From a virus (taxonomy: Duplodnaviria > Heunggongvirae > Uroviricota > Caudoviricetes), in the IMG/VR virus record IMGVR_UViG_3300009703_000007, positions 94,121 to 158,120 of that record: a stretch of DNA of 64,000 nt; one strand, 5' to 3'. Position numbers and translations under genes: made by a program. Positions 4,595 to 55,321 of the stretch are shown here, one piece after another. The notes beneath the pieces are model-generated. The model was not told where the DNA came from, did not search any database, and saw only the letters and a list, made by a program, of their open reading frames with translations. Within the stretch, counting starts at the first letter, position 1; every line of letters begins with the position of its first letter.

Positions 4595-4869
4595 ACTCTC
4601 GTTGTAGTGCTCGGCCTTCCTGCAGTAGCTTGAATTGTATAGCTCTGTCCAGGCGACGGTCCTTGTTCTTCTTTTGAGTTTCTAGGCGCGTTGGATCATA
4701 GTCCAACTTGTCTACGGCTAAGTCTAATAGCTCCTTTTTCCAGGTCATACGGGCCTCCTAATCAGCTAGGTCGGCGTCCGATAAGTTCCTATATGAACTT
4801 GTCTGACTTCTCCGGGAGGCTATTCCACAGTGACGAAGTTACTTCATCTACGGTCTTACGTATCCTGAT

Positions 4870-5097
4870 TTAAGTTAGGTCGATGCGTTTTGGCACGTAC
4901 CTGAATGAGTCCACCATCTCGCCATGGCCACAGCATGCGGCTAAAACGAGGTTCTTTACGTCGGGACTGTCAGACTTCTTGTACAAGTCGACACAAGGAG
5001 ACACAGGCCCCCAGCATCGCTTTGCGTCAGCACTATACCACGCACAGTCTTCTGTGGTATAGGTTTCCTTCTCTTCTACAGGCCTACTAGGTATCAT
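4870..5097 (-). CDS. small Cys-rich hypothetical protein
   Basis: Distal part of track ORF 4870..5181, whose N-terminal part is the tRNA-Thr read-through. Internal ATG after the tRNA. Cys-rich sequence (CAWY, CWGPVSPC, CCGHGE). Confidence 0.25.
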   Translation of the reverse strand: MIPSRPVEEKETYTTEDCAWYSADAKRCWGPVSPCVDLYKKSDSPDVKNLVLAACCGHGEMVDSFRYVPKRIDLT

Positions 5098-5111
5098 CCA
5101 AACCTCTACAA

Positions 5112-5187
5112 TGGTGCTGGCGACAGGACTTGAACCTGTAACCTGCTGATTACAAATCAGCTGCTCTACCAGTTGAGCCACGCCAGC
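5112..5187 (-). tRNA. tRNA-Thr (anticodon TGT)
   Basis: Hand-folded cloverleaf. Acceptor gctggcg/cgccagc. D stem gctc/gagc. Anticodon stem gctga/tcagc with loop tttgtaa. T arm acagg-ttcaagt-cctgt. CCA encoded. Confidence 0.85.
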
Positions 5188-5554
5188 ATCCGTTATAGTA
5201 TAAAGCGGAGCAAGCCCTCTACAGGCCTACTCCGCGTTGCGAAGGGTAGTGGTGAGGCGGGGTGGTCTAGAGGATGAAGTGGAAACTCATGGAATGTGAC
5301 ATGGGCGCTGCGAAATGCATCTTCGACCAGTCACGAGCCTCTACCGGTTTACGCTTAGGCTTCTTCCTCGTCTGCGCACGAAGGTCGTACAGAGACGCCA
5401 TAGCGCTTCCGAGCTGCATCATTTCACTATTTTCCAACATCTGGCAAAAACCATTAGTCATTTCTTTAAGGGCTGCGGTGTCGACGTTACGAATCATTTG
5501 TCTCGGATGCTCCTGTATCTATTTTAGGGTGACGGAAGGGGTTAAGTCAAGGAC

Positions 5555-5822: not shown

Positions 5823-6332
5823 CTAGACGCGGACCAGAGCCCTCTCGTCGTTCCAGGTGTGGTCTCGGAACCGGTTGCCGTCGTTGGCCTTCTCCGCGCG
5901 GAAGGTACGGGGAAGCTTCTTCAGCGTCACCGACTCGTTGAGTAGCCGTGTGACGTAGGTCTCGGCGTTACCCTCGGGTATCTGCATGTCGAAGCACGCG
6001 CCGTTGGCTTTCTGGAGACGCCGAGTCACGAGATCTCGAGCCCACGACTTGGTGTAGTTTCTCGTCTCGTGCTGAGGGTTGTAGCGCGCGAGCGCAGCTC
6101 GGAAGTTCCGGGCTCCGGTAATCCCCTCAGGAGATGGAGTCTCGTCCAATCGAACGAACCCGAAGGTCACCCGCTGGCCGTTGTTCATGTGGACGTGTCG
6201 GAAGTAAATCCTACGCCCCTCGCTGTCGCGATATTGAACAGGATCGGTAGCCTGCTCTGCTGTGTCACTCATAGAATCCTCTGACGTATGAGTTAGGGGC
6301 TGAGCTATGCGCCCAGCCTGGGGTGTTATCAT
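5823..6332 (-). CDS. hypothetical protein
   Basis: 169-aa ORF. Start codon overlaps the polymerase stop codon. Confidence 0.4.
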   Translation of the reverse strand: MITPQAGRIAQPLTHTSEDSMSDTAEQATDPVQYRDSEGRRIYFRHVHMNNGQRVTFGFVRLDETPSPEGITGARNFRAALARYNPQHETRNYTKSWARDLVTRRLQKANGACFDMQIPEGNAETYVTRLLNESVTLKKLPRTFRAEKANDGNRFRDHTWNDERALVRV

Positions 6333-18922: not shown

Positions 18923-19025
18923 TTTGTTCTTTGTTATTCTCCGTTGGCCACCTTTGGCCTGGTTGTTGTCGCTAATTATGGCACCTCAGGCGTGCATATC
19001 AAACTGAAATATTTATATATTTCGC

Positions 19026-19053
19026 TTGACATTGAGGGTCGCGACCTTATACT
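19026..19053 (+). promoter_or_regulatory. sigma70-type promoter (TTGACA-16-TATACT) for the sigma gene, predicted leaderless
   Basis: ttgaca at 19026-19031 and tatact at 19048-19053. The ATG is at 19060, 7 nt after the -10 element. Confidence 0.55.
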
Positions 19054-19059
19054 AAACGG

Positions 19060-19920
19060 ATGGCTGATAACAAAAAGAAGACCAGAGCGACTGGACCTAT
19101 TGCTGATGCTCGTTCACTATATTTCAAGGACTTGTCACGAGTCAAGATTCTAAAGGTTGAGGAAGAAAGAAAGATATACGCCGAGTACGCCGCGAGCGGG
19201 TTTACGGACACTGTAGCACGTGACAAGCTCTTGGAGGGCTGTCTCCGCTTGGTCGTAACTCGGGCGTCAAAGTTCAGCCACAACAACCCTGCGTTGTTGG
19301 ATGAACTGATCTGTGCTGGGAATGAGGGGCTGATGAAAGCTCTGACTAAGTACGATCCCACGAAAGGTACACGTATACCGTCATATGCCATCTGGTGGAT
19401 TGACCTATACATCAGAAACACCTTGAGTGAATCGCACCCTGTCAAGGTCCCTATGTGGCGACAGAAGCGTGGAGTCAAGCTTCGTCGTCTAAGGCAGCAA
19501 GGCAAAACAACCGCTGAAATGGCGGAAGAGTGCAACATTACTGAGGCGCAAGTAGAGGAGCTTGAGAACAGCAGATACTATAGCGCAGACATCGCCAGCG
19601 CTGACATCAACGGAAGCATGTCGTACGTGCGCTCTGTGTCGGACATGGATCTGTTCAAGAGCGTAGACGTCGAAGCGGACTCCATTGAGGAGTCTGCTAA
19701 ACGTGTACTCAACGAGGTAATTAGTGAGTTATCCGACGAGGAACAGGTCATCATACGGAGCTACTATGGCATTGGACGTAAGCCGCTGAACTTACCACAG
19801 CTTGCAGAAACAAAGGGAGTGACCTCTGAGCGCGTACGTCAGATAAAGAACAAGCTTCTGGTGCGACTCCGAGCCGCGTTTAAACGACGCGGAGTCAGCT
19901 CTATTGACGATCTTCTTTAG
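19060..19920 (+). CDS. sigma-70 family RNA polymerase sigma factor
   Basis: Region 2-like DELICAGNEGLMKALTKYDPTKGTRIPSYAIWWI. Region 4 HTH LAETKGVTSERVRQIKNKLLVRLR. Confidence 0.85.
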   Translation: MADNKKKTRATGPIADARSLYFKDLSRVKILKVEEERKIYAEYAASGFTDTVARDKLLEGCLRLVVTRASKFSHNNPALLDELICAGNEGLMKALTKYDPTKGTRIPSYAIWWIDLYIRNTLSESHPVKVPMWRQKRGVKLRRLRQQGKTTAEMAEECNITEAQVEELENSRYYSADIASADINGSMSYVRSVSDMDLFKSVDVEADSIEESAKRVLNEVISELSDEEQVIIRSYYGIGRKPLNLPQLAETKGVTSERVRQIKNKLLVRLRAAFKRRGVSSIDDLL

Positions 19921-26549: not shown

Positions 26550-28286
26550 ATGGCAAATCCAGGACCGCTTCCGTATAACTACGACATCGTTGGGCAGCGA
26601 AGGCTCATATCGAACCCACTGTTCATGGTGCTCCGGAGTTTCATCCCTGAGCGAATCAAGGAGGTGTTCTTACTTTGTGATTTCCTAGTGTACAATAGCG
26701 AGCAGGTGCTTGCTGCACTGAAGAAATTTTCTGAGTACCCGGTTACAGATCTCTCAATTACAGCTAAGACCGACTCACTCACCAATAAGTATAAGTCTCT
26801 TCTAAACGACACACTGGGCATGAAGAGTAAGAACTTGATAGGTGGCTTCGACCTTATGCTCTACGGCAACGGGTTTTACTCTCTATACTATCCGTTTACT
26901 CGTTACCTAAGCTGCGTTAAATGCGAGCATCGAACCAACATCAACAAGGCTGAGTATTCGTTCAATTCCAAGAGCTTTACGTTCAACCACAAGTGCGAGA
27001 ACTGTGGTCACAAGGTAGCCGCTTTGATGGACAAGCCGAACAAGGTGCCGGAGAGCTTGTCGGTAATTCGCTGGGACCCCAAGGACATCGCCATCAACTA
27101 TGAACCGATGTCTGACACGTCTGAGTACTACCTCCGTGTTTCTGAGATCACCATAGACAAAATACTGAAGGGTGATAAGCACGTCATATCCAAGATACCT
27201 CTTGCTATCTTCAACACTATACAGAAGCAACAGCTGGGCAAGGACGGGCAGCCGGTACTGTTCAAGTTCAAGTCCGACGAGCTGTACCACATGAAAACCC
27301 CGGCACCAGCAGGGATCAACTACGGCTGGGGCATCCCGCCTATCATGGCAGCGCTTAACGCTGTGTTCTATGTCAACACTCTTCGCAAGGCAAACGAGGC
27401 TATCGCCCTAGAGAGAATGCTGAGCTTCCGTGTACTCCATCCAGGGCAACGTACCAGCAGTGCAGAGCCGGCGGCGCGCATACGTCTAGACACGTGGGTG
27501 GACAATATGAAGCAGAACTATGAAAGGTTCCGCGTTGACCAGAACCACGTTATGTTCAGCCCGGTACCTGTAGAGTCGTCCAGTATTGGTGGCGACGGAA
27601 AGCTACTTATGACCATAGGAGAGCTTGAGGCTGCAGAGACCAATATCCTCCTGGCGTTGGGTATACCTAGAGAATTCGTGTACGGTGGCCTTAATAACCT
27701 CGGGGGAAGCATTACGCTGCGCAACCTTGAGAACCAGCTCTTTAATCATAGTGAGATGCTGGAGCGGTTCAGTCAGTGGGTGGCGGACAGGTGCGCTGCT
27801 TTCCTAGGCTGGGCTAAGGTAGAGGTGACTATGCCTCCCTTCAAGCTGATCGACGACGTGCAGCAGAAGGCAGCTGACATGCAGATGTACGCGCAAGGAC
27901 TACTGTCCAAACATACATTACTTCAGATGCATAGCCACGACTACGACGACGAACGCCGCTTCCTGCAGGAAGAGGCCGTTGACGACCATAAGTTCCAGCA
28001 GGAAGTTGCAGAAAAGGTGGAGGAGATATCCAACGCACTGCAGACCCAGGTCAAGCAGCAGGCGGGCGGCGGTGGTATGGGATCCGACGCTATCCTACAA
28101 CAAGCGTATCAGTACTTTGAAGAGTTGTCACAGATGCCCTATGAGCAACGCAAATCGGCGCTCTATCAGCTACAACAACAGGACTACGTTACGTACAGTG
28201 TGGTCAGTAAATTGATGTCGGAGCAAACCGATGGCGATGGTGTACAGCCGGCTCCTGACCAAGCGCAGGTACAGGGAGTGATGTAA
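26550..28286 (+). CDS. portal-like protein (putative)
   Basis: 578 aa. Size and an acidic, Q-rich C-terminus are consistent with podovirus-type portals. It also carries an unusual Cys4 ribbon, CVKCEH...CENCGH. Confidence 0.4.
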   Translation: MANPGPLPYNYDIVGQRRLISNPLFMVLRSFIPERIKEVFLLCDFLVYNSEQVLAALKKFSEYPVTDLSITAKTDSLTNKYKSLLNDTLGMKSKNLIGGFDLMLYGNGFYSLYYPFTRYLSCVKCEHRTNINKAEYSFNSKSFTFNHKCENCGHKVAALMDKPNKVPESLSVIRWDPKDIAINYEPMSDTSEYYLRVSEITIDKILKGDKHVISKIPLAIFNTIQKQQLGKDGQPVLFKFKSDELYHMKTPAPAGINYGWGIPPIMAALNAVFYVNTLRKANEAIALERMLSFRVLHPGQRTSSAEPAARIRLDTWVDNMKQNYERFRVDQNHVMFSPVPVESSSIGGDGKLLMTIGELEAAETNILLALGIPREFVYGGLNNLGGSITLRNLENQLFNHSEMLERFSQWVADRCAAFLGWAKVEVTMPPFKLIDDVQQKAADMQMYAQGLLSKHTLLQMHSHDYDDERRFLQEEAVDDHKFQQEVAEKVEEISNALQTQVKQQAGGGGMGSDAILQQAYQYFEELSQMPYEQRKSALYQLQQQDYVTYSVVSKLMSEQTDGDGVQPAPDQAQVQGVM

Positions 28287-30515: not shown

Positions 30516-31167
30516 TGTTGACAGTAGACGACTAGGGCTACTACCCGCGCAGGGAGAAACTCGTTATAGAGCTTCCTTATGGAACTCGAGTTCTTCTCGC
30601 GCCAGGCAGGACTGCTTGGAAGAGCTGACAAAATTCCCAGCTGTTCGAGCTCGGGGCAAATGTGTTTCGATTTGAAACACTAAGACCCATAGACCTTCCT
30701 GGAATGGAAATTACATTACCACATTTTCCATACTTTCGGTAGTAATTACGGCCGTTTGTATGATTAATTCAGTAATTAATAACATTATTAATTATAAAGC
30801 CCAACGCGACCGAATCCGACGGTTTTACCCTGAGGAGAGGGTGTAGGAGGCCGTCCTGGACGGACTGCCGATACACCTATGGAGCGTGGGTTTATAAAGT
30901 AACTACGTCGACGTTGCGTCGACCCTACTTTGCCTAAGCAAAAGATTAGGGCTAGTAGCTTACTGTGTCATCTACTGTCTATTCACGTGAACGATTCTTT
31001 CCACTTGTGCACCTTCCCCTACCGAAAAATCTAGAGGCCTCCAGGACCTCGAGCTCGCTTCAGTGTAACGTTAGCGCTAATGCCGACGGAGCCGGAGTGC
31101 ACGCAAAATTATACTGCAGTAAGATCTTGAGACCCTAGGTGTCTTTACATTTTATCGGCGACACGTG

Positions 31168-31208
31168 TTGATATATCAAAGGTTATTTACAACCCAGTGC
31201 TATATAAT
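31168..31208 (+). promoter_or_regulatory. perfect 12-nt palindrome TTGATATATCAA followed by an extended -10 (TGcTATATAAT) upstream of the RNAP gene
   Basis: Palindrome at 31168-31179. TGnTATATA/TATAAT at 31198-31208. Another -35/-10-like pair (gtgatt-17-taaaat) lies at ~31497-31525 just before the RBS agagg. Confidence 0.35.
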
Positions 31209-31538
31209 ACACGTCGACGTCCGGACTGTGCCATTGATGAGCTCATCTGCTCTATCACGACCAAACATCTCGGGCGGTGGATATTCCGAAAGGAGGCGAT
31301 ACCCTAAGCCGGCGTGGCGACGGGTGAGCTTCCTTTAGCGCGTAGGTTACTCACCTTAGCGTGTTAAGGAAAATATCCGAGGGACATTGCAGCAGGTACT
31401 GCTGCTTCCTTCTAAAGAAGAAAACGAGAAGGTGTAGAAAGAATCCTCCGCTAGGCCTACTAGCGTAACTTTGCGGAGCACTCGCTTATACCGGTGATTG
31501 TACATTATTTTTAAACTAAAATAGCACTAGAGGTATTC

Positions 31539-34500
31539 ATGCCAGCAAATGCAGTCAAGCTACAGAACATGATGACACACCCTGACGTCAAGAGGCGACA
31601 GGTACGTCAGTCTGTAATCACCGCGCTCGAAGCGCTGTTCCCTATAGAGTCTACACAGTACATACTAGACGCCAAAGAGCTCCGTGTACAGGAGCGTCTG
31701 TACTCGTCTGCGCAGCAGAAGACTGCAGTGCTGGATGGCAGGTCTCTGTCGGAGCCGATCAAGGCACGTGTCACACTGAAGGACAAGCGGACGGGAGAAG
31801 TCATAGACGAGAAGGGCAACTACACGCTGATGCAACTCCCTTGGATGACGCCCCGTCACACGTTTACAGTAGACGGTAACGAGTACTCAGTAGCCAACCA
31901 GCCACGCATCAAGCCAGGGATCTACACACGTACACGTGCCAACAAAGAAATAGAGTCTGCGTTTAACTTGGCTCGTGGCAAGAACTTCCGCCTAAGTCTG
32001 CAGCCGGATACGGGCAAGTTTTATTTGGAGCTTGGTAGTACCAAGATACCCCTCTACAACGTGATGAAGGCGCTGGGCGCGTCTATGGCGGAGCTGGACC
32101 AGCACTGGGGCAGGGAACTACACAACGTTAACGTAGAGTTCTTTGCACGTCATCAACAGAAGAGCGTAGGTAGACTCTACGAAAAGCTGGTACCTCGGCC
32201 CAAGAAGGGTCTGAGTATGGACAAGCAGATAGTCGCTATCAACGAGTACCTGGGCGTCACCAAGATGGACCCTGAGGTCAATGAGACCACGTTAGGTAAC
32301 CCGTTCAGCGAAGTCAACAAAGACGTTTTGTTGAAAGCCAGCCAGAAACTTCTGCACGTGTACCAAGGGACTGCTGAGGAGGATGACCGCGACAGTCTTG
32401 AGTTCAAGTCCATGCACAGTGTGGAGAACCACTTTGCTGAACGAGTGCGGCTGAAGGGCCGTGACGTGGTGAACAAGGTCAAGTTCAAGATGAACTTCTC
32501 CAAGGGGCCCCCTAGCGTCAGTGCATTCCTGACCGTAGGCGCCTTCTCAAAGGTTATTCGCACGTTCGTAACTAACGCGTCACTTAGTGCACAGCCTACA
32601 CAGATCAATCCTGTGGAGATAATCGACTACGCCGTCAAGGTTACGCCGTTGGGTGAGGGCGGCATTGAGAACGAGCGAGTCATACCCAACGAAGCTCGTG
32701 AAACACACGCTACCCAATTCGGTATCCTAGATCCCATCAAGACTCCGGAGTCATCGCACGCTGGAGTGGATGTTCGTGCAGCTATGCTTGCAGCTAAGGA
32801 CGAGAAGGGTAATATGTACACACCCTTGTACGACCTGCGCAAGGGCAGGCTGAAGCACGTATCTGCTAAGGAACTTAAGGGCTCTGTGGTGGCCTTTCCC
32901 ATGCAGAAGATCAAGCCTCACAAAGGCTTATCGGAAGCTGAGCTTAACCGTGTAGTTGAAGTGCTGAATAAGGGTACGGTGGGCAAGGCCAAGGTTCGTG
33001 ACGTTGACTACTACCTAGATCATCCTGCCAAGATGTACGGACCCAACACTAATCTCATACCCGCTATAGATGGTATTCAGGGCAACCGTGCTATCATGGG
33101 CGCTAAGATGGTTGGCCAGGCTGTACCCCTCAAGGACGCGGAAGCTCCGCTAGTCCAGGTGCAGTCCTACGTTCCAGGTAAGTCCCACGAGCAGATCATG
33201 GCAGACATGGTCAACCCCACGTCTACCGTGGACGGTGAGGTGGTGGACGTGGATGACGCGTTCATCACTGTTAAGGACTCGGCGGGGAAGGAACACAAGA
33301 TAGGGTTCTACGACCACTTCCCGTTGGCTAGTAAGACTTACCTGCACGACACGCCTATAGTCAAGGTAGGGGACAAGGTCAAAAAGGGTGACCACCTGGC
33401 GGAGTCCATATACACAAGAGACAAGACGCTGGCTATCGGCAAGAACCTCGACGTGGCTTACCTTGCGTACAACGGACTCAACTCCAATGACGCGGTGGTG
33501 ATCAGCGAGTCCGCTTCGCAGAAGTTCACGTCTCTACACATGTATAAGCACCACATGCCGTTGGACAAGCAGGTGACGCTTGACAAGGATAAGTTCGCTA
33601 GTCACTACCCGACCAAGTACTCTCTGGACCAGCTGAAGAATCTAGACGACGACGGCGTGATTACGCCTGGAAAGCGCCTAGAGTCGGGCGATCCATGGCT
33701 GGTTGCACTTAGGGAGACCAAGCCGTCCGCTGAGGACATCATGCTCGGTAGGTTACACAAGGGCCTGATACGTAAGTACCGAGACGAGTCCAAGACGTGG
33801 GTCAGAGACTACCCTGGCACTGTGGTCGACGTGTCTCGCACGGCTAAGAAGGTGACTATCACTGTTAAGGTGGAGGCCCCTATGAAAGTCGGCGACAAAT
33901 GCTGCTTCGACGAGAAGCATGAGTTGCTGACCGCGGAGCGTGGGTGGGTACCTGTGACAGATTTGGCTGTATCGGATACGTACGCATCTATATCCGAAGA
34001 AGGTATGATTGAGTGGGTACCTGCTGAGGCTACTCATGAGTACCCTGTGGAAAATGAACCTATGTACACGCTGAACACTACACAAGTGTCGATGTCTGTT
34101 ACAGACGAGCATAAGCTATGGGCGTCCACTAGAAAGGGTGGAGTTTACACAGGGTACTCTTTAGTAGAAGCGAGTGAGCTGGAAGGAAAACGCTACCGCT
34201 TAGCCATGTCTGGAAAATGGGAGGGGCGTATTTCTACTAAGGAGGTACGTATTGGTGATAAGTTGTACACCATACCACAGTACCTTATGCTGCTAGGAAT
34301 GTTTCTATCTGAGGGAAATACGTTTAGCCACGTCCCGTCAGGTAGCTACGGGGTTGATATACATCAAGTCAAACCACACACGCGTGCCAAGATGTTTGAG
34401 GCGCTTTCTGCTGCGGGTATCAAGTACTCTAAGACCCCTACTAGGGTGCGAATTTACAGCAAGGCGCTGATGGAACATTTTAAGCCCCTTGGAAAATGCT

Positions 34501-36938
34501 ATGACAAGTACATCCCTCGCTGGGTCTTGGACCTGCCCTCGGACCAGCTCGAAGTACTCTACACGTGGCTTATGTGGGGTGACGGTAGCGAAACAACAAC
34601 AGGTCACAACTACTGCACGACCAGCAAGCAGTTAGCGAGTGACTTCCAGGTACTGTGCTTGCTAACTGGGCGCGCAGGCAAGATAGACACTATACCCGCC
34701 GGAGAGAAGTTGGCCTTCGGCAAAATCGTCCAAGCTGCTGAGGTGTACTATGTCAGAGTATATCGCAATAAGCTGTGCCCAACTATCAATCACGGCCATG
34801 CGAGTTCTCAGAAAGGTCAACGAGAGGTGCGCGGTGAGTACACGGGCCGGGTATACTGCGTAGAGTTGGAGCGCAACCACACTCTTTACACCCGACGGGA
34901 GGGTAAGGTTCACTGGTCAGGTAACTCTAATCGATATGGAGGTAAGGGTGTCGTCAGCAAGATTCTGCCGGACAACCAGATGCCTCAGCGAGAGACGGGT
35001 ACACCTATAGACGTCATGGTTACGTCTGCTAGTGTAGTGTCACGTATTAACCCTGCGCAGATAGTAGAGACAGCTATCGCTAAAGCCGTCAAGAAGCAGG
35101 GTAAGGTCCATAAGTTCCAGAACTTCAGTACCAAGGACAACACACAGTTGGCCCGTGAAATGATGGAGGAAGCTGGAGTATCCGACAAGGAGCGGGTCTA
35201 CGACCCTGTAGAGGACAAGTGGATCGACAACGTGTTTGTCGGGCCGCAGTACATGCTCAAGCTGTTCAAGTCTACTGACACTAACTTCAGTGCACGTAGT
35301 ATCGGAGGGTATGACCCCCACGAGCAGCCAGGACACGGTGGGGTAGAAGGCGCCAAGTCTCTGGGTGGTATGGAAGTCAACGCTATGTTGGCTCACAACG
35401 CTCGCGGCTTGCTTCAGGAAGCGAGTATCATCAAGTCGCAGAAGAATGCGGATTTCTGGAGAGCGGTCCAGTTGGGCCTACCCACTCCGCCGCCTCGTAC
35501 TACATTCGCGTACAACAAGTTCTTGGCTATGCTCAAGGGCGCAGGTGTTCGTGTAGACCGGCAGGGTGACAAGATGGTCATGTCGCCGCTGACGGATGAC
35601 GACGTGACACGCATGTCTGCGGGGAAGATTCTCAACCCACGTATGGTCAGAGCGAAGGACCTTTACCCTGAGAGAGGCGGTTTATTTGATGAGGTCATCA
35701 CAGGAGGGTCCCGCGGCACACGGTGGTCGCACATCGACCTGGCCGAGCCGATGGTCAACCCTATGTTTGAGGAGCCGGCCCGTAGGCTGTTGGGCCTTAA
35801 GCAGAAGGAGTTCCGGGAGGAGGTCCTGAGAGGCGGAGAACAGCTTAAGAAGCAGTTGAACGCACTAGACCTGAAGAAGGAAGAGAAGGAGCTTAGGGAG
35901 CGCCTACGGACCGCTAAGGGCGCTATACGAAATGACGTAGTCAAGAGGCTAAAGTACATAGCTTCCTTGAAGAAGGTTGGGCTGAAAGCAGGGGACGCGT
36001 ATGTGCTCAGTAAGATACCAGTTCTTCCTCCTGTGATGCGTCCTATTACGCCGTCGAAGTCGGGCGATCTCATGATAGATGATCCTAACTACTTGTACAG
36101 AGACCTGATGTTGGCCAGCGACAGTATACGTGAGGCCAAGGATGCCATGCTTCCTGAGGTAGACGTGCGCGCTGCGCGGTCACATACATATGAGTCTCTC
36201 AAGGCGTCTGTTGGGTTGGCTGACCCAGTGTCTCCTCAGCTAGCTGCTAAGAACGTACGAGGATTTGTCAAGAACATCGCGGGACGTAACCCCAAGCAGG
36301 GCTACTTCCAGAGCAAGCTTATCAGTAAGCCCCAGGACTTGACTGGTCGTGGTACTGCCGCGCCGGATCCTAGCCTTGGGTTGGACGAGATAGGCCTGCC
36401 TGAGGACATAGCCTGGAAGCAGTACGCCAACTTCACTATACGCCGCTTGGTTAGGTCAGGGTACACCGCTGCACGAGCTCGGGAGCTGTTGGAAGACAAG
36501 GCGTACCCTGCACGACAGGCTTTGGAGGCTGAGGTCAAAGAACGTCCGATCATATATAACCGTGCTCCGTCTCTGTGGAGGTACAGTGTGGTGGCCGCGT
36601 ATCCGAAGCTCGTGAAGGGCAAGACTATTAAGGTCAACCCTCTCGTAGAGAACGGGATGAACCTTGATTACGACGGCGACGCGCTGCAGCTACATCTCCC
36701 CGCTACGGATAAGGGAGTAGCTGACGCTAAAAAGATGACGCTGTCCAACCTGCTGTTCAGTGATAAGAAGAAGAACGACCTACTGGTGTTCCCTCAGCAC
36801 GAGGCGATCATAGGTATCTTCCAGGCTACGGCAGCCAAGACCACAGGCAAGAAGCGCACGTTCAAATCTAAAAAAGAGGCTTGGGCAGCGTACAAGGCAG
36901 GTGAGCTGGACCTTGGAGATGAGGTGATGGTAGGGTAG
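31539..36938 (+). CDS. multisubunit-type RNA polymerase: full beta subunit fused to the N-terminal half of beta' (RpoC1/gamma-like), interrupted by an intein
   Basis: Beta motifs: NQPRIKPGIY. PLGEGGIENERV...PIKTPES. LIPAIDGIQGNRAIMGAKMVGQAVP. GDK|RYGGKGVVSKILPDNQMP...GTPIDVMV. GGMEVNAMLAHNA. Beta' motifs: KIPVLPPVMRPI. GRNPKQGYFQSKLISKPQDLTGRGTAAPDP. NLDYDGDALQLHLP. The ORF ends about 90 aa after DYDGD, so the bridge helix and trigger loop are absent. Confidence 0.85.
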   Translation: MPANAVKLQNMMTHPDVKRRQVRQSVITALEALFPIESTQYILDAKELRVQERLYSSAQQKTAVLDGRSLSEPIKARVTLKDKRTGEVIDEKGNYTLMQLPWMTPRHTFTVDGNEYSVANQPRIKPGIYTRTRANKEIESAFNLARGKNFRLSLQPDTGKFYLELGSTKIPLYNVMKALGASMAELDQHWGRELHNVNVEFFARHQQKSVGRLYEKLVPRPKKGLSMDKQIVAINEYLGVTKMDPEVNETTLGNPFSEVNKDVLLKASQKLLHVYQGTAEEDDRDSLEFKSMHSVENHFAERVRLKGRDVVNKVKFKMNFSKGPPSVSAFLTVGAFSKVIRTFVTNASLSAQPTQINPVEIIDYAVKVTPLGEGGIENERVIPNEARETHATQFGILDPIKTPESSHAGVDVRAAMLAAKDEKGNMYTPLYDLRKGRLKHVSAKELKGSVVAFPMQKIKPHKGLSEAELNRVVEVLNKGTVGKAKVRDVDYYLDHPAKMYGPNTNLIPAIDGIQGNRAIMGAKMVGQAVPLKDAEAPLVQVQSYVPGKSHEQIMADMVNPTSTVDGEVVDVDDAFITVKDSAGKEHKIGFYDHFPLASKTYLHDTPIVKVGDKVKKGDHLAESIYTRDKTLAIGKNLDVAYLAYNGLNSNDAVVISESASQKFTSLHMYKHHMPLDKQVTLDKDKFASHYPTKYSLDQLKNLDDDGVITPGKRLESGDPWLVALRETKPSAEDIMLGRLHKGLIRKYRDESKTWVRDYPGTVVDVSRTAKKVTITVKVEAPMKVGDKCCFDEKHELLTAERGWVPVTDLAVSDTYASISEEGMIEWVPAEATHEYPVENEPMYTLNTTQVSMSVTDEHKLWASTRKGGVYTGYSLVEASELEGKRYRLAMSGKWEGRISTKEVRIGDKLYTIPQYLMLLGMFLSEGNTFSHVPSGSYGVDIHQVKPHTRAKMFEALSAAGIKYSKTPTRVRIYSKALMEHFKPLGKCYDKYIPRWVLDLPSDQLEVLYTWLMWGDGSETTTGHNYCTTSKQLASDFQVLCLLTGRAGKIDTIPAGEKLAFGKIVQAAEVYYVRVYRNKLCPTINHGHASSQKGQREVRGEYTGRVYCVELERNHTLYTRREGKVHWSGNSNRYGGKGVVSKILPDNQMPQRETGTPIDVMVTSASVVSRINPAQIVETAIAKAVKKQGKVHKFQNFSTKDNTQLAREMMEEAGVSDKERVYDPVEDKWIDNVFVGPQYMLKLFKSTDTNFSARSIGGYDPHEQPGHGGVEGAKSLGGMEVNAMLAHNARGLLQEASIIKSQKNADFWRAVQLGLPTPPPRTTFAYNKFLAMLKGAGVRVDRQGDKMVMSPLTDDDVTRMSAGKILNPRMVRAKDLYPERGGLFDEVITGGSRGTRWSHIDLAEPMVNPMFEEPARRLLGLKQKEFREEVLRGGEQLKKQLNALDLKKEEKELRERLRTAKGAIRNDVVKRLKYIASLKKVGLKAGDAYVLSKIPVLPPVMRPITPSKSGDLMIDDPNYLYRDLMLASDSIREAKDAMLPEVDVRAARSHTYESLKASVGLADPVSPQLAAKNVRGFVKNIAGRNPKQGYFQSKLISKPQDLTGRGTAAPDPSLGLDEIGLPEDIAWKQYANFTIRRLVRSGYTAARARELLEDKAYPARQALEAEVKERPIIYNRAPSLWRYSVVAAYPKLVKGKTIKVNPLVENGMNLDYDGDALQLHLPATDKGVADAKKMTLSNLLFSDKKKNDLLVFPQHEAIIGIFQATAAKTTGKKRTFKSKKEAWAAYKAGELDLGDEVMVG
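33903..34925 (+). mobile_element. intein with LAGLIDADG homing-endonuclease domain inserted in the beta GDKxxxRHGNKG motif
   Basis: Insert begins CFDEKHELLTAERGWVPVTDL. Two LAGLIDADG-like motifs (MLLGMFLSEGN, LYTWLMWGDGS). Ends VHWSGN followed by Ser. Removing the 341 aa restores GDKC-SNRYGGKGV with spacing identical to E. coli GDKMAGRHGNKGV. Confidence 0.7.
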
Positions 36939-37347
36939 AGTATACAGCCCCAGGCCAACTCTACCCCCCACCCTTTACTTCGGCATGCTATCTGCTTTCG
37001 CCAGATTGCACGTAGTGCACATCGCTTGTCCGTTCTTACGGACGTGCTTGCCGCCTTTGCTTCTCGGCACGATGTGGTCAAGCGTCATAAGCACAGGCTC
37101 TCCCGTTACCAGGGAGTAGAAGTTCACGTGGTGAGACCTCTTGGAGCCCGGCTGGTTGGGAGTTAGTGCTACGTGAGTAGCTACGTGTGGGCACGCGGGT
37201 GTTGCGCAGCGTCTCTCTTCTGTGATGACCCTTATGCGCAGCCCCCCGTACTTTACACTTATACCGTTGAGCGTAGCCTCTCCCTGGCTACGCCCTGGTT
37301 TTACGTCTGTTATTTTGAAGAGCTTAATAGCTCCAACCCTTCTAGCT

Positions 37348-38241
37348 CTACTTGAGCAGAGCCTTAGCGACCTTACTCAGCGCGGAGAAGTCATCCGCCG
37401 ACCAATCCTCCAAGCTGCACCGATCCCCAACGTTATCCACGAGTACGATGCTGTGGTCGGTGTCGGCAGTCTTCAATAGCATGCCAGCTATAGAGATCTT
37501 AGCTAGCTGTTCCAAAGAGAATGTGGAATCTCCCATGTAGGCCTTCTTAGTACCGCGGCTGACCAACACCCCTTCCAGGTGTGGAAGGTACTCTAAAGCC
37601 ATGTCGAACCAAGCCTCTTCGTTGTACTCGTAGTGCTCTACACCGGAGACTGCGTCCTGGGAGCTATTCCACGTTTCCAACCCGTAGTCTACGAGCGCGT
37701 GCTCTACAGACTTCTGGAAGGTCACGTCCTCCGTCACCATAACACAGAAAGCTTTGCCTACAGCGTCCTTGACATCGTCGTGAGCCTCTTCTGCGGACAA
37801 GTCGATATCCACGCAGTCTACGGCCACGACGATAATTCCCGCTCTACGAAGAATTTCCAAAGCGTGGGGATACCGCCCAAACTCTACGCCGTAGTGAAGA
37901 TAGCTACTTACATCCGCCGTAGACTCCACAGACTTGGTTGCGGAGAATCCTTTTTCACACTTGACCGGAACTGCTATTCCGTTCCCTACTCCTGGCATGG
38001 GTGGGAGGTCGTCAGGTTTCACAACGCTGTGGGTAAGTCCACGTGCCTCGAGGTATTGCTCCTTCGAAATCTCACGGAACATGCGTGTCGGGTACTCACC
38101 TGCTAGTCCCTCTAGCTGTACGTGCTCAGGCGTCTCTCCGCATACCGCGAATGCGTTGGTGCGGTCGTTGTCAATGTGGTCGTACAGGTCACTGTCGATG
38201 GCTAACGCGAAAAGTGTCATCGTAAAGGTTACATACTTCAT
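37348..38241 (-). CDS. secreted hypothetical protein (N-terminal signal peptide)
   Basis: MKYVTFTMTLFALAIDS signal-like N-terminus. Acidic protein. Confidence 0.45.
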   Translation of the reverse strand: MKYVTFTMTLFALAIDSDLYDHIDNDRTNAFAVCGETPEHVQLEGLAGEYPTRMFREISKEQYLEARGLTHSVVKPDDLPPMPGVGNGIAVPVKCEKGFSATKSVESTADVSSYLHYGVEFGRYPHALEILRRAGIIVVAVDCVDIDLSAEEAHDDVKDAVGKAFCVMVTEDVTFQKSVEHALVDYGLETWNSSQDAVSGVEHYEYNEEAWFDMALEYLPHLEGVLVSRGTKKAYMGDSTFSLEQLAKISIAGMLLKTADTDHSIVLVDNVGDRCSLEDWSADDFSALSKVAKALLK

Positions 38242-39740: not shown

Positions 39741-40068
39741 ATTTCTGTGCCTCTACAGTTTCAGTGAGGAGGATGCTCCCCACCACTTCAGACAACTCTT
39801 CCGTAGTTACAGGTGAGTCATCGTGTAGGTTTATCTCTTCAGCTACTAGCGCTGCTGTCTTCGACAACAACTCCTCCGGAACCTTATCTGGAAACCTAGT
39901 GGCCAGGTACTTGGCTTGCCTCGTAAGGACTCTGCCTATAAGGTCAAGGTGTCGCTGGTACGCGCCTAGGTCTAGCGGCGTATCCGTAGAGAACTTCTTA
40001 GAAGCCTCCAGCGCAGACAAGCTAGCTAGTAGGCGTGTGCCAGGATTATCGGGTTCACTCAGCTTCAC
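39712..40068 (-). CDS. hypothetical protein
   Basis: 118-aa ORF. Confidence 0.35.
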   Translation of the reverse strand: MKLSEPDNPGTRLLASLSALEASKKFSTDTPLDLGAYQRHLDLIGRVLTRQAKYLATRFPDKVPEELLSKTAALVAEEINLHDDSPVTTEELSEVVGSILLTETVEAQKYVVHRGSLN

Positions 40069-40927
40069 TTTGGTGCCCTCGGTTAATGATTCTTGGAGGC
40101 AGGTTTATGACAGCCTCTCTACCGAATTTCCCTGCCGCTAGGCTGCCTTCCTTTACGCCTCTTCGGTTGAGAACCGTCAGAGTCTCTTCCACGATGTCCA
40201 GCACCGCTACTCCTGATTCATCGTAGAAGGACCTACCAGAAAGTATAGGTGCTCCGAAGACATAAGCGTTGGGTATCAGTTCTCCCAGAAGGTGCGTAGT
40301 GTGGTAATGGCCAAAGGCCCAAAGCCAGGGATGAGGATAGTCTACATTGTGCGCTATGACGTTGTAGAACGTGTTCAGCTCGTAGGACGACGGCACGCGG
40401 TCGGGTACTATCTTAGGGCCTTGGAGCTTCATGGGCCCTACGAACGACAACGGTGCGCAGTGCGTCAGGATCAGGTCAGCGCCGTTAGCATCGTACAGCT
40501 CCATGGCTGCAGTAACGTGCTCTTCCAGAATCTCCTCTTGATACCACCACGACTGGTTGGGAGGGCGTTTATTCCGTCCGTGCTTGTCTATGGAGTCTGC
40601 TCCTGGGATAGCCAGGACCGACAGTCCTGCTATATCCAGCAGCTCCGGGCGTTTCATCACGTAGAACTGGGACTTGTCTTCAGCCTCCTGGAGGCCTGCT
40701 ACAGTGTTCCAGTTCTCGTGGTTGCCTGGCAGTACGTACAACGGAGTATGCCCCGTCCAGCCATGCGTGCCTCTGACCGTTTGGTCCCTACCGAAGGGCC
40801 CGAAACCGTAGTCCCCGAGCTGTATTACAGCATCGAATGGTCCATACGTTTTCATGACGCCTTCTACGACCGTGTCCATGAACGCCCACTCAGCGTGAAC
40901 GTCACCGACGAGTAGGATTTTGCTCAT
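40055..40927 (-). CDS. calcineurin-like metallophosphoesterase
   Basis: GDVHAE, GDYGFG and GNHE motifs. Start taken at MSKILLVGD, internal to track ORF 40055..40984. Confidence 0.7.
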   Translation of the reverse strand: MSKILLVGDVHAEWAFMDTVVEGVMKTYGPFDAVIQLGDYGFGPFGRDQTVRGTHGWTGHTPLYVLPGNHENWNTVAGLQEAEDKSQFYVMKRPELLDIAGLSVLAIPGADSIDKHGRNKRPPNQSWWYQEEILEEHVTAAMELYDANGADLILTHCAPLSFVGPMKLQGPKIVPDRVPSSYELNTFYNVIAHNVDYPHPWLWAFGHYHTTHLLGELIPNAYVFGAPILSGRSFYDESGVAVLDIVEETLTVLNRRGVKEGSLAAGKFGREAVINLPPRIINRGHQSEAE

Positions 40928-41012
40928 TTGATTTCCTAGCTTTCTTGTGTTGTACTGTTGGGTAAAAGAAAATGGTGCGCCCACTAGGACTTGAACCTAG
41001 GACCTGCCGGTT

Positions 41013-41771
41013 CACGTTTGTGTACGTTTCCGTACTCCGCGGACTATATCTTCACCCTCAGCCGTACTGTTAGGGTGCAGGGCGCTCTTGCCGGTGATTA
41101 AGGACACTTTGCTTACGCAGTCCTCCGGTAGTCTCTGCACGTTCCACGGGTGTACCCGTGGCTTCGCTCAAGGTTAGCCTAGCAATCCGTACGTACGTGC
41201 CCACTTTTTGACTGCGTTATTAGAAACGCCATAAGCTCGACCTAGCGCTACATAACTTTGCGTCTGTAGCATTAGTTCCAACTCAGCCTTAGAGGGCCTG
41301 TCCTTTGCTTTTCGCCTAAGGACGTTGACACATTCTCGGCTACACGCACGCTTTTGTTTAGCCTGTAGGCAGTTCCCACAGACCTCACAGCGTGCGACAG
41401 ACGTGACTGCCTTAGCTTTCCCTGAATTCACCCTGTCCACCCCGAATCTTTCGATACCGGGGGCACCGTTTCTAAGCCAATGGTGTAGTTTCGCGTGCTG
41501 GCCTCTACTAAGCACCAGCAAATTGTTAGCCCGGTTGTTGGATTTGTCACCGTCTAGATGGTGCACCTCCTCATACCGATCTAGCTCCCTGCCAATTGCA
41601 TCTGAGGCTACCTTACGATGCTCGTATACCCACCCTTCGTGATCGCCACTCTTGTAGGCGTGCACATGATCAGGAGCGTATACCATGACGTAACCGCGAT
41701 TCTTCCTTGGCTGCTTGTGTTCATTGCTCATGCAGGTATGGTAGTCTACTTGAACCTCAAACACAACCACA
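41013..41771 (-). mobile_element. ~760-nt intron in the tRNA(CAT) anticodon loop (group I-like placement) carrying an HNH ORF
   Basis: Interrupts the anticodon loop between positions 36 and 37. The ORF occupies most of the insert. Confidence 0.5.
41174..41731 (-). CDS. HNH homing endonuclease (intron-encoded)
   Basis: EVHHLDGDKSNNRANNLLVLSRGQHAKLHH HNH motif. The track ORF extends in-frame to a GTG at the first intron nucleotides. ATG chosen at MSNEHKQ. Confidence 0.65.
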   Translation of the reverse strand: MSNEHKQPRKNRGYVMVYAPDHVHAYKSGDHEGWVYEHRKVASDAIGRELDRYEEVHHLDGDKSNNRANNLLVLSRGQHAKLHHWLRNGAPGIERFGVDRVNSGKAKAVTSVARCEVCGNCLQAKQKRACSRECVNVLRRKAKDRPSKAELELMLQTQSYVALGRAYGVSNNAVKKWARTYGLLG

Positions 41772-42744: not shown

Positions 42745-44778
42745 TCAGAACTGCACGTTGTACGTGCGAGTGGAGGTGCCGATGGTGACGGCGAAGGTTG
42801 CGGTGTCTTTCTTCGTGGACGAGAATCCCACGCCAGAGATCTGGTCGTCGGACAGCGGGCAGGTGGTCTTGGCACCCAGCACCTCGAACACCTTGCGATG
42901 CTCGGTCAGGTCTCCCCGGAGGTGCTCGTTGAAGAACCCACGAACGGTCATGGGGTTCTTGCATCCCCGCAGAACGAAGATGTGGTGCTTGTTGCCGGTG
43001 CCCTTCTCGCCCCAGTAGTTGGGAGAGAGCAGGACGGTGTCCACAGGCACGAGCGTGCCGGTAGAGACTCCCCACTTCTCCACGCTTGCCGAGCCCAGCG
43101 TCATGTTCTTGTCGAACGCGACACCCTCGACCTTTCCGTTCTTGACTTGGATGCCCATGACGGGCTGCTTGGCTCGAGCCTTGACTGCTCGCTCGAACTT
43201 GGCTCTGATCGTCTCCCCTCCGTGCTCGTACTCGATCTCGAAGCCGACGTCCGTGGCCTCTCGCTTGGTGTACTGGTGCACGAAGATCGCGTACTCACCG
43301 TCGCCGAACTTGCGGATCTTGGACTGGGTGAAGGCCAGGTTCTCCACCGCTTCCCGGGTGTGGGGGGAGACGTTCATGTCCACGTCGAGCACGCCCTGCT
43401 TGCTCCCGTAATAGATCTGCGCCCCGCGCGGGGTGATGCAGTGGATGTCCAGGTCGTCGTAGTTGTACCAACCGAGGGACACCCGAAGCCAGGCCTCGAC
43501 GTTGCCGCCGGCGGTCTTGACTCGCTGCTTGATCCCGTCCGCGACATCCCCGTCGTAGGCCCAGGCGAAGTTGTTGTCCCACTTGAAGAGCGGGGCGACG
43601 TCTTCTTCGGCCGGAGCGGTGAGGCTCACGAAGTTGCCGAGGTGGGACTTGTCCAGCTGGATGCTGATGGAGTCCGCCAGGGGCAGAATGGTCGACATGA
43701 AGTCGTCCACCGGGATGCTGACCACACCCTTCTGCTCCTTGGGAGCCTTGGGCTTGACTGCGGTCAGCAGCACGTCCATCAGGTTGTCGCGCATCTCGGG
43801 ACGAACATCCCGGTCCACGAACAGCACGTCGTTGACGGACACGTCCGACATCACCGCGAAGCGGCGGTTGATCGCGCTCTCCAGACCAAGCTCTCGGAGC
43901 TTGTCCACGGCCTTCTGCACCATGCCCGCAGTGATCGGAGCAGAGGTCCTCTTGTAGTTCTGCGGGGCCACCTTGGTTTCGAAGCGACCTACAGCCTTCT
44001 CGATTCCCATGCCATCGACCAGGTCCGTGACCAAAGTTCCGATGACTGTGTTGCGGAAGCGTGCTGCGGGATTACCTACGTTCATCCACGCGAAGTTGGT
44101 GCGGAGGTTGCCTGAGCAACCGTCGTACTTCTGCTTCAACGCCAAGAAGTTATTTACTGAGTGTGCGTGCTCTTCTCCTCGGTAGATGCTGTTGCTGGCG
44201 ATGAGGTCAGCCACAGTTTCAAGCGCTGCCAGGGAATCTTCCTCTAGTCCACGACTCAGCACCTGGTGCATTGCGGACGTAGCGCCCATAGCCTCACCTA
44301 CGCTAGTGGTCTTGCACTGCGTAGGCACGTTACCCTGGAAATGATTCCAGACGATGGTGTCACCGTTGTCGAGTTTCTCGACGTTGGAGACGTTGCCATA
44401 ACTGGCCTCGCGTGAGTGGTAGGTGCCGGCTATGGGGTGAGTCCGGATGAACTCGGCCATAGCCTCAGCTACTACACCCAGGAACCCGAACTCTCCGGCG
44501 TTGTCCCAGACGGTCTGGTAATTGCCGTTGGCATCCAGGACCACGATTCGTCCCAGATTCTTGATGAAGGATCGGCAGCAGGCACAGTCGTGCTCGGTAC
44601 GCTCACGGAAGATGGGGTTGGTGCCCTCTGGGAAAGACGTGAGGTACCAGTTCCAGAGATCGTCCTTGCTGGCGGTGGTCAGCAGGACCTGGGCTCCACT
44701 GGCGGTGATGTCGTTCAGACGAGTCCGCACATGGTGCGAGAATTTGGTGAAATCTGGTTTTGTCATGGTGCCTTTCAA
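42745..44778 (-). CDS. large hypothetical protein (677 aa, high-GC island)
   Basis: Long ORF with HDCACC and other Cys motifs. No confident family assignment. The antisense ORF 42325..44115 is typical high-GC noise. Confidence 0.55.
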   Translation of the reverse strand: MKGTMTKPDFTKFSHHVRTRLNDITASGAQVLLTTASKDDLWNWYLTSFPEGTNPIFRERTEHDCACCRSFIKNLGRIVVLDANGNYQTVWDNAGEFGFLGVVAEAMAEFIRTHPIAGTYHSREASYGNVSNVEKLDNGDTIVWNHFQGNVPTQCKTTSVGEAMGATSAMHQVLSRGLEEDSLAALETVADLIASNSIYRGEEHAHSVNNFLALKQKYDGCSGNLRTNFAWMNVGNPAARFRNTVIGTLVTDLVDGMGIEKAVGRFETKVAPQNYKRTSAPITAGMVQKAVDKLRELGLESAINRRFAVMSDVSVNDVLFVDRDVRPEMRDNLMDVLLTAVKPKAPKEQKGVVSIPVDDFMSTILPLADSISIQLDKSHLGNFVSLTAPAEEDVAPLFKWDNNFAWAYDGDVADGIKQRVKTAGGNVEAWLRVSLGWYNYDDLDIHCITPRGAQIYYGSKQGVLDVDMNVSPHTREAVENLAFTQSKIRKFGDGEYAIFVHQYTKREATDVGFEIEYEHGGETIRAKFERAVKARAKQPVMGIQVKNGKVEGVAFDKNMTLGSASVEKWGVSTGTLVPVDTVLLSPNYWGEKGTGNKHHIFVLRGCKNPMTVRGFFNEHLRGDLTEHRKVFEVLGAKTTCPLSDDQISGVGFSSTKKDTATFAVTIGTSTRTYNVQF

Positions 44779-54608: not shown

Positions 54609-55321
54609 TGGTATCCCTTCGTGGTTAGTAACTGCAAGGTCTTATGTAGTCGCAGGACATGTTGATCAGCTCTTTGGCGCCGCAGTAGTACTCGACTACT
54701 AGGATCGTGATGCCCTCGAACGCTAGGGTTCGGCGTGCTATCTCATCCTCGCCGCACCACCTACAGTGTCTTCTCTCATTCACAGTTCTACCGCGTAAAC
54801 ACGGCCTCCAGTACCTCTGTTAGGTTGTTGATTTTATCAAGTAAATGGTGGAGGCGGTGGCATCGAAGCCACGTCCCGAGTTTGCTAGTAGCGTCAGCCT
54901 TTTACGTGAGGTAGCCCTTCAGCCGGAGGGCACGGTGTCGCTGACTTTGCCAGCAGTCAACCTCTGAAGTTTCGCAGTCACGAGGGAGGCACCTCGATTC
55001 AGCTATCTCTAGTACATTTGACCCTGCGCGCTACAAGAGCATCTTACGCGCAAAGCCCCGGAGTCCATCACGTTGGATCATCTCCGGAAAGGACTTCGTT
55101 CTGCCTAGGCAGCGACGGCGAGAGGCGCGAACGCTCCCTCGTCGACGTCGAACTCGCTGACGAGCTCGGCATCGAAGTCCTCGTAGTTCCCGTTGTTGGC
55201 AACTATTTGAACTGGGTGTTTATCGGTTCACCCATCCTACTCACGAAACTGGGGCATTCACACCCCGGTCGAGTCCTTTCGCCCCCGTAAGGGTATGTTC
55301 TGCTTTCTTATACCATTTTGC

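Follow-up and report, generated by a model that had tools for sequence, protein, structure and literature searches.

The stretch of viral DNA analysed here, referred to as the window, comprises 64,000 nucleotides (positions 94,121 to 158,120 of the IMG/VR record IMGVR_UViG_3300009703_000007, Caudoviricetes), and corresponds to positions 19,326-83,325, in reversed orientation, of the 177,388-bp metagenomic contig ena:ERZ27251152:k141_890409. The gene at 31539..36938 (+) codes for a 1799-aa protein which is probably the large subunit, in precursor form, of a phage RNA polymerase (RNAP) that consists of two polypeptides, dispenses with the α subunit, uses a sigma factor, is activated by protein splicing and is delivered with the virion. 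Rather than a lone oddity, this gene is a new member, with an intein, of a large family of phage RNAPs. A first-pass annotation of the window had described it as a single-chain bacterial-type RNAP, in which a full β subunit is fused to the N-terminal half of β', accompanied by a phage-encoded sigma70-family factor. That observation is confirmed and its interpretation is partly supported; overlooked at that stage were a 341-aa intein, the deletion of the β' Zn-ribbon, and the low identity of the protein to its bacterial counterparts.

The open reading frame (ORF) starts with ATG and is unbroken over its 1799 codons, as verified by an ORF check of the window. Profile and phmmer matches resolve the precursor into an N-extein, an intein and a C-extein, and the spliced product is predicted to be a 1458-aa fusion of β with the N-terminal part of β' (β'N). 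On the whole ORF, Pfam recognizes Rpb2_6 (6.5e-44), Rpb1_2 (9e-19), Rpb1_1 (3e-9) and Rpb2_3 (2.2e-5), with Rpb2_2 remaining under the Pfam cut-off at 17.9 bits. The NCBIfam models rpoB (1.2e-70) and rpoC (5e-61) match as the motifs had led the first-pass annotation to expect, and the archaeal models are far weaker (4e-10 versus 1e-70 for β). In phmmer searches of the PDB, aa 25-770 and 1129-1328 match bacterial β (best E 2.5e-64) and aa 1428-1797 match bacterial β' (best E 8e-46). An AlphaFold model of aa 1130-1799, with a mean predicted local distance difference test score (pLDDT) of 72.6 that exceeds 90 across most of the β' part, retrieves bacterial β' and cyanobacterial γ in Foldseek (E ~1e-28).

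The N-extein (aa 1-788; 31539..33902, +), delimited by phmmer against E. coli RpoB and the PDB and by the NCBIfam rpoB model, aligns to E. coli β ~52-164 and 420-932, as far as the G-D-K-C of the catalytic loop, and includes both the region of the rifampicin pocket and the flap. The β part of the C-extein (aa 1130-1348; 34926..35582, +; phmmer/PDB and NCBIfam) is equivalent to E. coli β 1067-1337 and runs from S-N-R-Y-G-G-K-G through GGMEVNAMLAHNA at aa 1276 to the β C-terminus. The catalytic loop of the double-psi β-barrel (DPBB) of β, G-D-K...R-x-G-x-K-G, is kept in the ORF, but interrupted by the intein. The remainder is β'N (aa 1349-1799; 35583..36935, +; phmmer, NCBIfam and Foldseek), which aligns to β' 175-546 and retains the clamp coiled-coil, the lid (VLPPVMRPI, aa 1495), the rudder region and the DPBB. 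The latter holds, by motif and alignment, the catalytic N-L-D-Y-D-G-D with the Mg-binding Asp triad (aa 1708-1714; 36660..36680, +), whose residues D581, D583, G584 and D585 are invariant in an alignment (A1) of 28 sequences with a common end point and 49-78 % identity to the query. The β motifs followed by β' motifs quoted in the first-pass annotation are all present in the ORF.

This fusion protein is of the bacterial type, although by sequence comparison it lies far beyond the sampled bacterial range. Identity to E. coli is 26 % for β and 28 % for β', while E. coli and Staphylococcus aureus, taken as a yardstick, share 52-56 %. None of the NCBIfam equivalog levels is reached, with 238 bits against a required 896 (PRK00405), 213 against 801 (TIGR02013) and, for β', 207 against 963. 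The gene is under purifying selection in both halves of the fusion, nonsynonymous differences (pN) amounting to 0.18 against 0.72 for synonymous ones (pS) in the comparison with a 75 %-identical relative. At the DNA level, a search of a phage collection with nt 31000-38000 gave no match.

The insert in the β catalytic loop (aa 789-1129; 33903..34925, +) is recognizable by its sequence as a 341-aa LAGLIDADG intein, which makes up 19 % of the ORF and was delimited as an in-frame insertion with respect to relatives and with a hidden Markov model (HMM) of its family. The insertion point separates the counterparts of E. coli β M1066 and A1067, within the invariant GDK...RxGxKG loop, and no report of an RNAP β insertion at this site was found in the literature searched. 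Two relatives of ~1460 aa (P0001 and P0002, 72-77 % identical) align with a clean gap exactly over aa 789-1129. The insertion is also clean and in frame relative to Salmonella phage Arash and to L002, the closest contig, for which blastn places the breakpoints at nt 33898/34925 (L002 12369/12373). A homologous insert is found at the same site in 19 of the 105 family members, and an HMM of 12 such inserts matches that of the query with 297 bits (E = 7e-93). Pfam LAGLIDADG_3 is matched by nine out of ten members of this intein family, and the family profile matches the solved inteins 2cw7, 7qsu, 7qss, 1dq3 and 6zgq (E 8.5e-8 to 4e-4), which include PI-PkoII, V-ATPase inteins, PI-PfuI and AceL NrdHF. 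The clean gap in the ~1460-aa relatives, together with these matches, identifies the 1799-aa product as a precursor, for which protein splicing is predicted. The intein starts with Cys1 (C789) and ends in ...S-G-N1129, with Ser (S1130) as the +1 residue; inside it are T-D-E-H as block B and the two motifs LLGMFLSEGN and LMWGDGS. The known LAGLIDADG inteins PI-PkoII (2cw7), PI-PfuI (1dq3) and those of V-ATPases have the same Cys1, block B TxxH and two LAGLIDADG motifs, and they too end in Asn, are followed by Ser, Cys or Thr at +1, and sit within a catalytic motif that is highly conserved in an essential enzyme.

A second intein is encoded on the same contig, to the left of the window, in a ribonucleotide reductase of at least 1205 aa with Intein_splicing and HNH_3 domains (L093 20007-21332). 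Next to the RNAP gene, the stretch 36990-37271 (-) shows 49 % tblastn similarity to the HNH endonuclease encoded immediately behind the fusion gene in L002 (14386-14751); no single clean ORF coincides with this stretch, which may represent a homing endonuclease in decay.

At the junction between both subunits, β extends to its usual C-terminal end (E. coli 1337, aa ~1340) and is followed, without any linker, by β' from residue ~11 onwards (aa 1349, SPLTDDD...). There is no Cys within aa 1349-1430, which indicates that the Cys4 Zn-ribbon of β' has been deleted, and its site is occupied by GGLFDEVITGG-SRGT-RWSHIDLAEP. Most of β' 64-174 is also gone, and the same holds for the whole family, including the family consensus. 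At the other end, the ORF stops 85 aa after the final Asp of NLDYDGD (about 90 had been estimated before), at about E. coli β' 550, so that the bridge helix, the trigger loop and the C-terminal clamp are not part of it; the absence of the first two had already been pointed out. The last aligned residue corresponds to position 552-558 of the 619-626 residues of γ, and this C-terminal end point is shared by all 27 aligned homologues.

A large protein database holds several hundred relatives of this protein, and the best 120, which are those described here, all join Rpb2 and Rpb1 domains in a single protein, of ~1450-1490 aa, or 1800-2570 aa in those bearing an intein, encoded on contigs of up to ~207 kb. 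In IMG/VR, an alignment-based scan retrieved more than 100 loci of the fusion family, and a scan with a single protein sequence retrieved no match. Cultured members are Salmonella phage Arash (gp206, 35 % identical to the query over 1537 aa) and the Vibrio phages D181, D148 and D69.

The missing part of β' is encoded separately in the relatives. Arash gp216 (606 aa) aligns to E. coli β' 723-940 and 1181-1286, a span that contains the bridge helix, the trigger loop and, for the second Zn site, its C-x-x-C; the insertion SI3 is missing. Such a β'C gene (~600 aa) is found on the same strand, 0.6-7.4 kb downstream of the fusion gene, in 56 of 82 related loci. Three further loci carry one continuous β-β' ORF of 1985-2082 aa (L058, 7694-13888; L074, 7676-13912; and L073), and encode true single-chain RNAP cores. 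In the remaining 23 loci no β'C was seen, but in 18 of them the available downstream sequence is shorter than 4 kb. The β'C family, recognized by Pfam Rpb1_5, amounts to 885 clusters. The existence of complete β-β' fusions shows that the fusion and the β'C parts belong together, and the enzyme is normally made of two polypeptides and occasionally of one. The query gene codes for one of the two, and the term "single-chain" used in the first-pass annotation applies to 3 of the 82 loci. Longer β'C genes, of 1369-1453 aa, also occur (L082, ~14498 onward; L066, 16287-20396), and that of L082 has a low-complexity, Pro/Ala-rich C-terminal extension of ~850 aa.

The family is large and publicly sequenced, and it is essentially uncharacterised. 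No paper describing the β-β'N/β'C architecture, the loss of the Zn-ribbon or the intein site was found in a search that left most subscription journals outside, and this architecture represents an undescribed variant of the phage-encoded bacterial-type RNAPs. The labels "β", "β'" or "hypothetical" which such genes currently carry hide it.

The best-known relative is Arash, with gp206, gp216 and the sigma factors Gp10 and gp196 (PMC10585845). It exhibits the same β-β'N architecture and end point, a similar genome size (~180 kb), an orthologous gp196 sigma factor, and the same neighbourhood of sigma factor, helicases, portal and fusion genes. It differs in that gp206 lacks an intein and in that the β'C gene lies 4.8 kb downstream. 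The genes are labelled β and β' in the Arash paper, in which the fused and split architecture is not described (PMC10585845).

A second set of phage RNAPs of bacterial type is found in the mReC phages (Weinheimer & Aylward 2020, PMC7481178), Cobetia phage Carin-5 and Rhizobium phage RHph_Y65, tailed phages of ~100-300 kb whose β and β' are recognizable by HMMs and, as here, fall far outside bacterial diversity. Carin-5 likewise encodes a sigma factor, directly upstream of its β'-β genes. The combination of β/β' with sigma, which the first-pass annotation had regarded as unlike known phages, is therefore preceded by the annotated genes of both Arash (PMC10585845) and Carin-5. The mReC-type RNAPs have separate, complete β (~1000-1390 aa) and β' (~890-1200 aa) genes (Supplementary Data 2 of that study), and neither fusion nor sigma nor inteins are mentioned for these phages (PMC7481178). 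Carin-5 and RHph_Y65 are 25-28 % identical to the query, no closer than bacteria are. Relationships were judged by pairwise identities and scores, and on these and on the different gene architecture and sizes the query does not conform to the published mReC type. A 1364-aa mReC β suspected of being a fusion was also discarded, since the loci from the same metagenomes are complete fusions of 2064-2078 aa, a different thing.

Among cellular enzymes, the β-β' fusions of Helicobacter and Wolbachia (PRK09603 and PRK14844) also join the C-terminus of β to the N-terminus of β', and both models match the query, with 129-189 bits against cut-offs of 4632-5372. Those proteins, however, are complete (~2850 aa), with a linker, full-size subunits and the Zn-ribbon, in organisms with α and ω; even the complete phage fusions (~2000-2080 aa) of L058, L073 and L074 are far shorter. 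Cyanobacteria and plastids also divide β' downstream of the Asp triad, into γ (RpoC1) and β' (RpoC2), and γ is among the best structural matches of the query. The arrangement nevertheless departs from the rpoB-rpoC1 model proposed in the first-pass annotation, as the cyanobacterial split (the end of γ) lies ~65-70 residues later, and RpoC1 is not fused to β in cyanobacteria. The split of the phage β' looks to be independent of the cyanobacterial one.

The virion and non-virion RNAPs (vRNAP and nvRNAP) of phiKZ and AR9, the crAss-like gp66 and YonO are also phage DPBB RNAPs without α. The phiKZ type also splits β' after the catalytic DPBB, and one phiKZ-type set is packaged in the virion for early transcription. 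RNAPs of the phiKZ/AR9 type are highly divergent, split β too and use no sigma factor, and reviews of jumbo phages list phages with RNAP but without sigma, and phages with sigma but without RNAP (PMC7824862). The query differs in its unsplit and fused β, in aligning readily to bacterial β and β' (E 1e-45 to 1e-70), and in the presence of sigma70-family factors. When compared with PHROG, the fusion ORF matches phrog_24349 and phrog_25354, and the families annotated as phage "RNAP beta" are much weaker. To our knowledge, the biochemically characterised phage multisubunit RNAPs (phiKZ/AR9 and crAss type) are all extremely divergent and do not use sigma.

The sigma70-family factor reported in the first-pass annotation is indeed encoded in the window, at 19060..19920 (+). 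This 286-aa protein, with regions 1.2/2, 3 and 4, exceeds the Pfam cut-offs for Sigma70_r2 (34.2 bits, cut-off 24) and Sigma70_r4 (36.8 bits, cut-off 24.1), resembles RpoS/RpoH in NCBIfam (2.5e-34; TIGR02937 85.8 bits, cut-off 42.9), and aligns over aa 15-281 with RpoS in the PDB (E = 2e-24). Its motifs are readable as ...GNEGLMKALTKYDP...YAIWWI... and ...TSERVRQI.... Identity (29 %) and synteny identify it as the ortholog of gp196, one of the two sigma factors (Gp10 and gp196) that Arash carries. Upstream of it, at 19026..19053 (+), a match to the consensus reveals a putative sigma70-type promoter, TTGACA-N16-TATACT (11/12 positions), which stops 6 nt before the ATG and suggests a near-leaderless mRNA. 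The divergent spacer in which it lies (18923-19059) also bears a promoter-like TTGATA-N16-CATAAT on the - strand, and strong sigma70-type sites are otherwise rare in the intergenic DNA of the window.

With respect to the remaining core subunits, neither α nor ω is annotated in the complete genome of Arash, and a phmmer search with E. coli RpoA over 1.73 Mb of DNA of the lineage found nothing below E = 3, although this was a single-sequence probe and no ω probe was run. We infer that the polymerase is independent of α; the use of host α, or a very remote phage α, may also account for these results. In view of the low identity, the missing Zn-ribbon and the lack of a detected α, the "close-to-canonical" core that had been postulated is an overstatement.

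According to these data, it is proposed that a streamlined β (~1007 aa once spliced), joined head-to-tail and without linker to the N-terminal ~450 aa of β', would be made as an inactive precursor because of the intein inside the β catalytic loop, and that splicing would restore G-D-K-C-S-N-R-Y-G-G-K-G. The active enzyme would require a separate β'C of ~600 aa that provides the bridge helix, the trigger loop and the second Zn site, and whose gene in the query genome would lie outside the 82 kb examined. The covalent link between β and β' probably stands in for the scaffold of the α dimer, because no α or ω was found in the lineage. Promoter recognition would most likely fall to the sigma70-family factors of the phage itself. 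By analogy to Arash, the enzyme would be a late product that is packaged in the particle and enters the cell along with the DNA, and transcription would then be independent of the host RNAP. The polymerase is also predicted to be resistant to rifampicin, as the pocket (aa 343-373, nt ~32565-32657) presents the substitutions Q513A, D516T, H526Y, R529K and S531T (E. coli numbering), at the classical positions of rifampicin resistance.

Several observations weigh against one part or another of this proposal, and the alternatives draw on them. Regarding the virion, Gp206 gave the most spectra of all proteins in purified Arash particles (3516), above the major capsid protein, and Gp216, the sigma factor Gp10 and the adjacent helicase Gp217 were also detected, from which the authors proposed a role of the virion RNAP proteins in early transcription (PMC10585845). 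The same authors warn that proteins may turn up in virion preparations as contaminants when they are abundant (PMC10585845). Moreover, gp196 is not on the Arash virion list, and no sigma factor of the Gp10 type was found within the window, where the ortholog of gp196 is the only one. The enzyme might then be made after infection and transcribe middle or late genes with the gp196-type sigma factor, leaving the early genes to the host RNAP and its sigma70, for which the near-consensus promoter in front of the sigma gene would be usable. Such a non-virion polymerase is unlikely, but has to be taken seriously. It does not readily explain why Gp206 gave more spectra than the major capsid protein in the company of β'C and a sigma factor, nor the location of the fusion gene in a portal/structural neighbourhood and on the strand of the structural genes. 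The portal-like gene of the window (26550..28286, +; tblastn to Arash gp204 28 %, E = 6e-80; 61 % to its L002 homologue) precedes the RNAP gene in the same orientation, an order also seen in Arash (gp204, then gp206). Delivery of the enzyme with the virion is, by this analogy, probable for the query phage as well.

Regarding the use of sigma, the residues R275, E295 and A302 of E. coli β', which are known to contact sigma70, are A, A and S in the query, so that sigma binding is not readable from the sequence. In bacteria, the β' Zn-ribbon, missing here, contributes to promoter-spacer and RNA-exit functions. Furthermore, k-mer enrichment and a sigma70 consensus scan revealed no convincing shared promoter motif in 7 kb of intergenic DNA. 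Phage sigma factors are known to redirect the host RNAP core, as T4 gp55, SPO1 gp28 and phiEco32 gp36 do. Many phages encode sigma factors without any RNAP (PMC7824862). Those of this phage might likewise act on the host core, the phage polymerase being sigma-independent like the phiKZ/AR9 enzymes. This possibility is considered improbable: the fusion has kept the modules to which sigma binds, the β' clamp coiled-coil and a flap-tip-like β segment, whereas the phiKZ-type enzymes, which work without sigma, have diverged beyond alignment. In addition, no fewer than two separate phage lineages combine sigma genes with bacterial-type β/β', the sigma gene of Carin-5 lying in the β'-β gene string, and a sigma factor co-purifies with the RNAP subunits in Arash particles. 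A pairing of the fusion core with the phage's own sigma factor is plausible on these grounds, and we infer that the polymerase uses sigma.

Regarding the partner subunit and splicing, the β'C gene was searched for over contig positions 9,338-91,691 (82 kb of 177,388 bp). It was not found in the window, either with Pfam and PHROG on all large ORFs or by tblastn with Arash gp216, nor in 18 kb of its flanks or the 24 kb of the closest relative. The β'C family HMM matched no stop-to-stop ORF of at least 40 aa in the window and L002 at E <= 100, and the best 120 of the 885 β'C family matches include no copy from contig k141_890409. The earlier prediction that an RpoC2-like half is encoded elsewhere is borne out by the ~600-aa β'C of the relatives, but not by the 82 kb of the query contig. 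In the query sub-lineage, β'C would have been relocated to a site over 27 kb downstream or over 40 kb upstream, or have been lost. The divergent intein, for its part, matches nothing in Pfam or the PDB when searched alone, and its penultimate residue, as in all 13 family members checked, is Gly in place of His.

A decaying remnant, with truncated β', no β'C and an intein that no longer splices, would fit these features, yet it is very improbable. Over half of the contig lay outside the β'C search, and the catalytic motifs and intein nucleophiles are all intact. The loss of β'C is unlikely because the 5.4-kb frame is intact and its pN is far below its pS, the 75 %-identical relative used in that comparison having the same β'C-less neighbourhood. 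As for an assembly chimera, in which a bacterial rpoB-rpoC fragment became joined to phage DNA, it has nothing in its favour beyond the surprise of bacterial-type motifs in a phage contig, and is ruled out for all practical purposes by the identical 1799-aa protein on two independent contigs, the SNF2, portal and fusion-gene synteny kept in L002 and Arash, an even GC content (0.49-0.55), the 26-28 % identity to bacterial β/β', and hundreds of homologues on phage contigs.

The window also codes for a gpA-type large terminase, a DnaG-type primase, an SNF2 helicase, PD-(D/E)XK nucleases, the portal homologue and a LigD-type ligase. The gene at 6329-9313 (-) specifies a family A DNA polymerase (PolA) whose polymerase and 3'-5' exonuclease domains are preceded by a fused N-terminal domain of the uracil-DNA-glycosylase superfamily. 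Within 5112-60491, ten genes for tRNAs (Thr, Asn, Ala, Gly, His, Pro, Val, Glu, Gln and Leu) are scattered among small ORFs, all on the - strand, and their arrangement is similar in Arash. A full-length match to transfer-messenger RNA lies at 54846-55286 (-), with 78.6 bits for Rfam RF00023 (gathering threshold 47); none was reported by ARAGORN. A group I intron (41020-41483, -; RF00028, 69.3 bits) overlaps an HNH_3 endonuclease ORF (41174-41770, -) and abuts a metallophosphoesterase ORF (40055-40984, -), whose gene may be interrupted by it. A 677-aa ORF at 42745-44778 (-) coincides with a GC peak (0.61 versus ~0.52) and matches phrog_1735, of unknown function, with 734 bits, Pfam DUF8224 being found on the called gene. 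To the left of the window, the same contig encodes a 382-aa RVT_1 reverse transcriptase (L093 16543-17691). Immediately upstream of the RNAP gene, the 860 bp of 30676-31538 contain no ORF of at least 60 aa; L002 has there a 230-aa gene with no detectable homologue in the window. The palindrome ACGTCGACGT occurs twice in this region (at 30905 and 31211), which also holds a terminator-like hairpin (31389-31405).

On a broader scale, it is tentatively suggested, and with more doubt than for the query protein itself, that a widespread family of ~180-kb tailed phages, whose hundreds of members range from Salmonella and Vibrio phages to environmental contigs, may build a minimal sigma70-family-dependent RNAP from two polypeptides, or from one, without α, ω or Zn-ribbon, which would be carried in the virion, be independent of the host RNAP and, in the phage studied here, be gated by protein splicing. 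If this is true, it would be the first sigma-using multisubunit RNAP of a phage and the smallest natural sigma-dependent core. These phages would represent a natural experiment on the minimum needed for sigma-dependent transcription, on what the α scaffold contributes and on where β' may be cut, and the availability of cultured Arash and of its virion proteomics brings all three within direct experimental reach. Through the intein, the catalytic loop would add an instance of a mobile element lodged at the heart of an enzyme of viral transcription, and the enzyme itself could serve synthetic biology as a compact, promoter-specific and probably rifampicin-insensitive polymerase.

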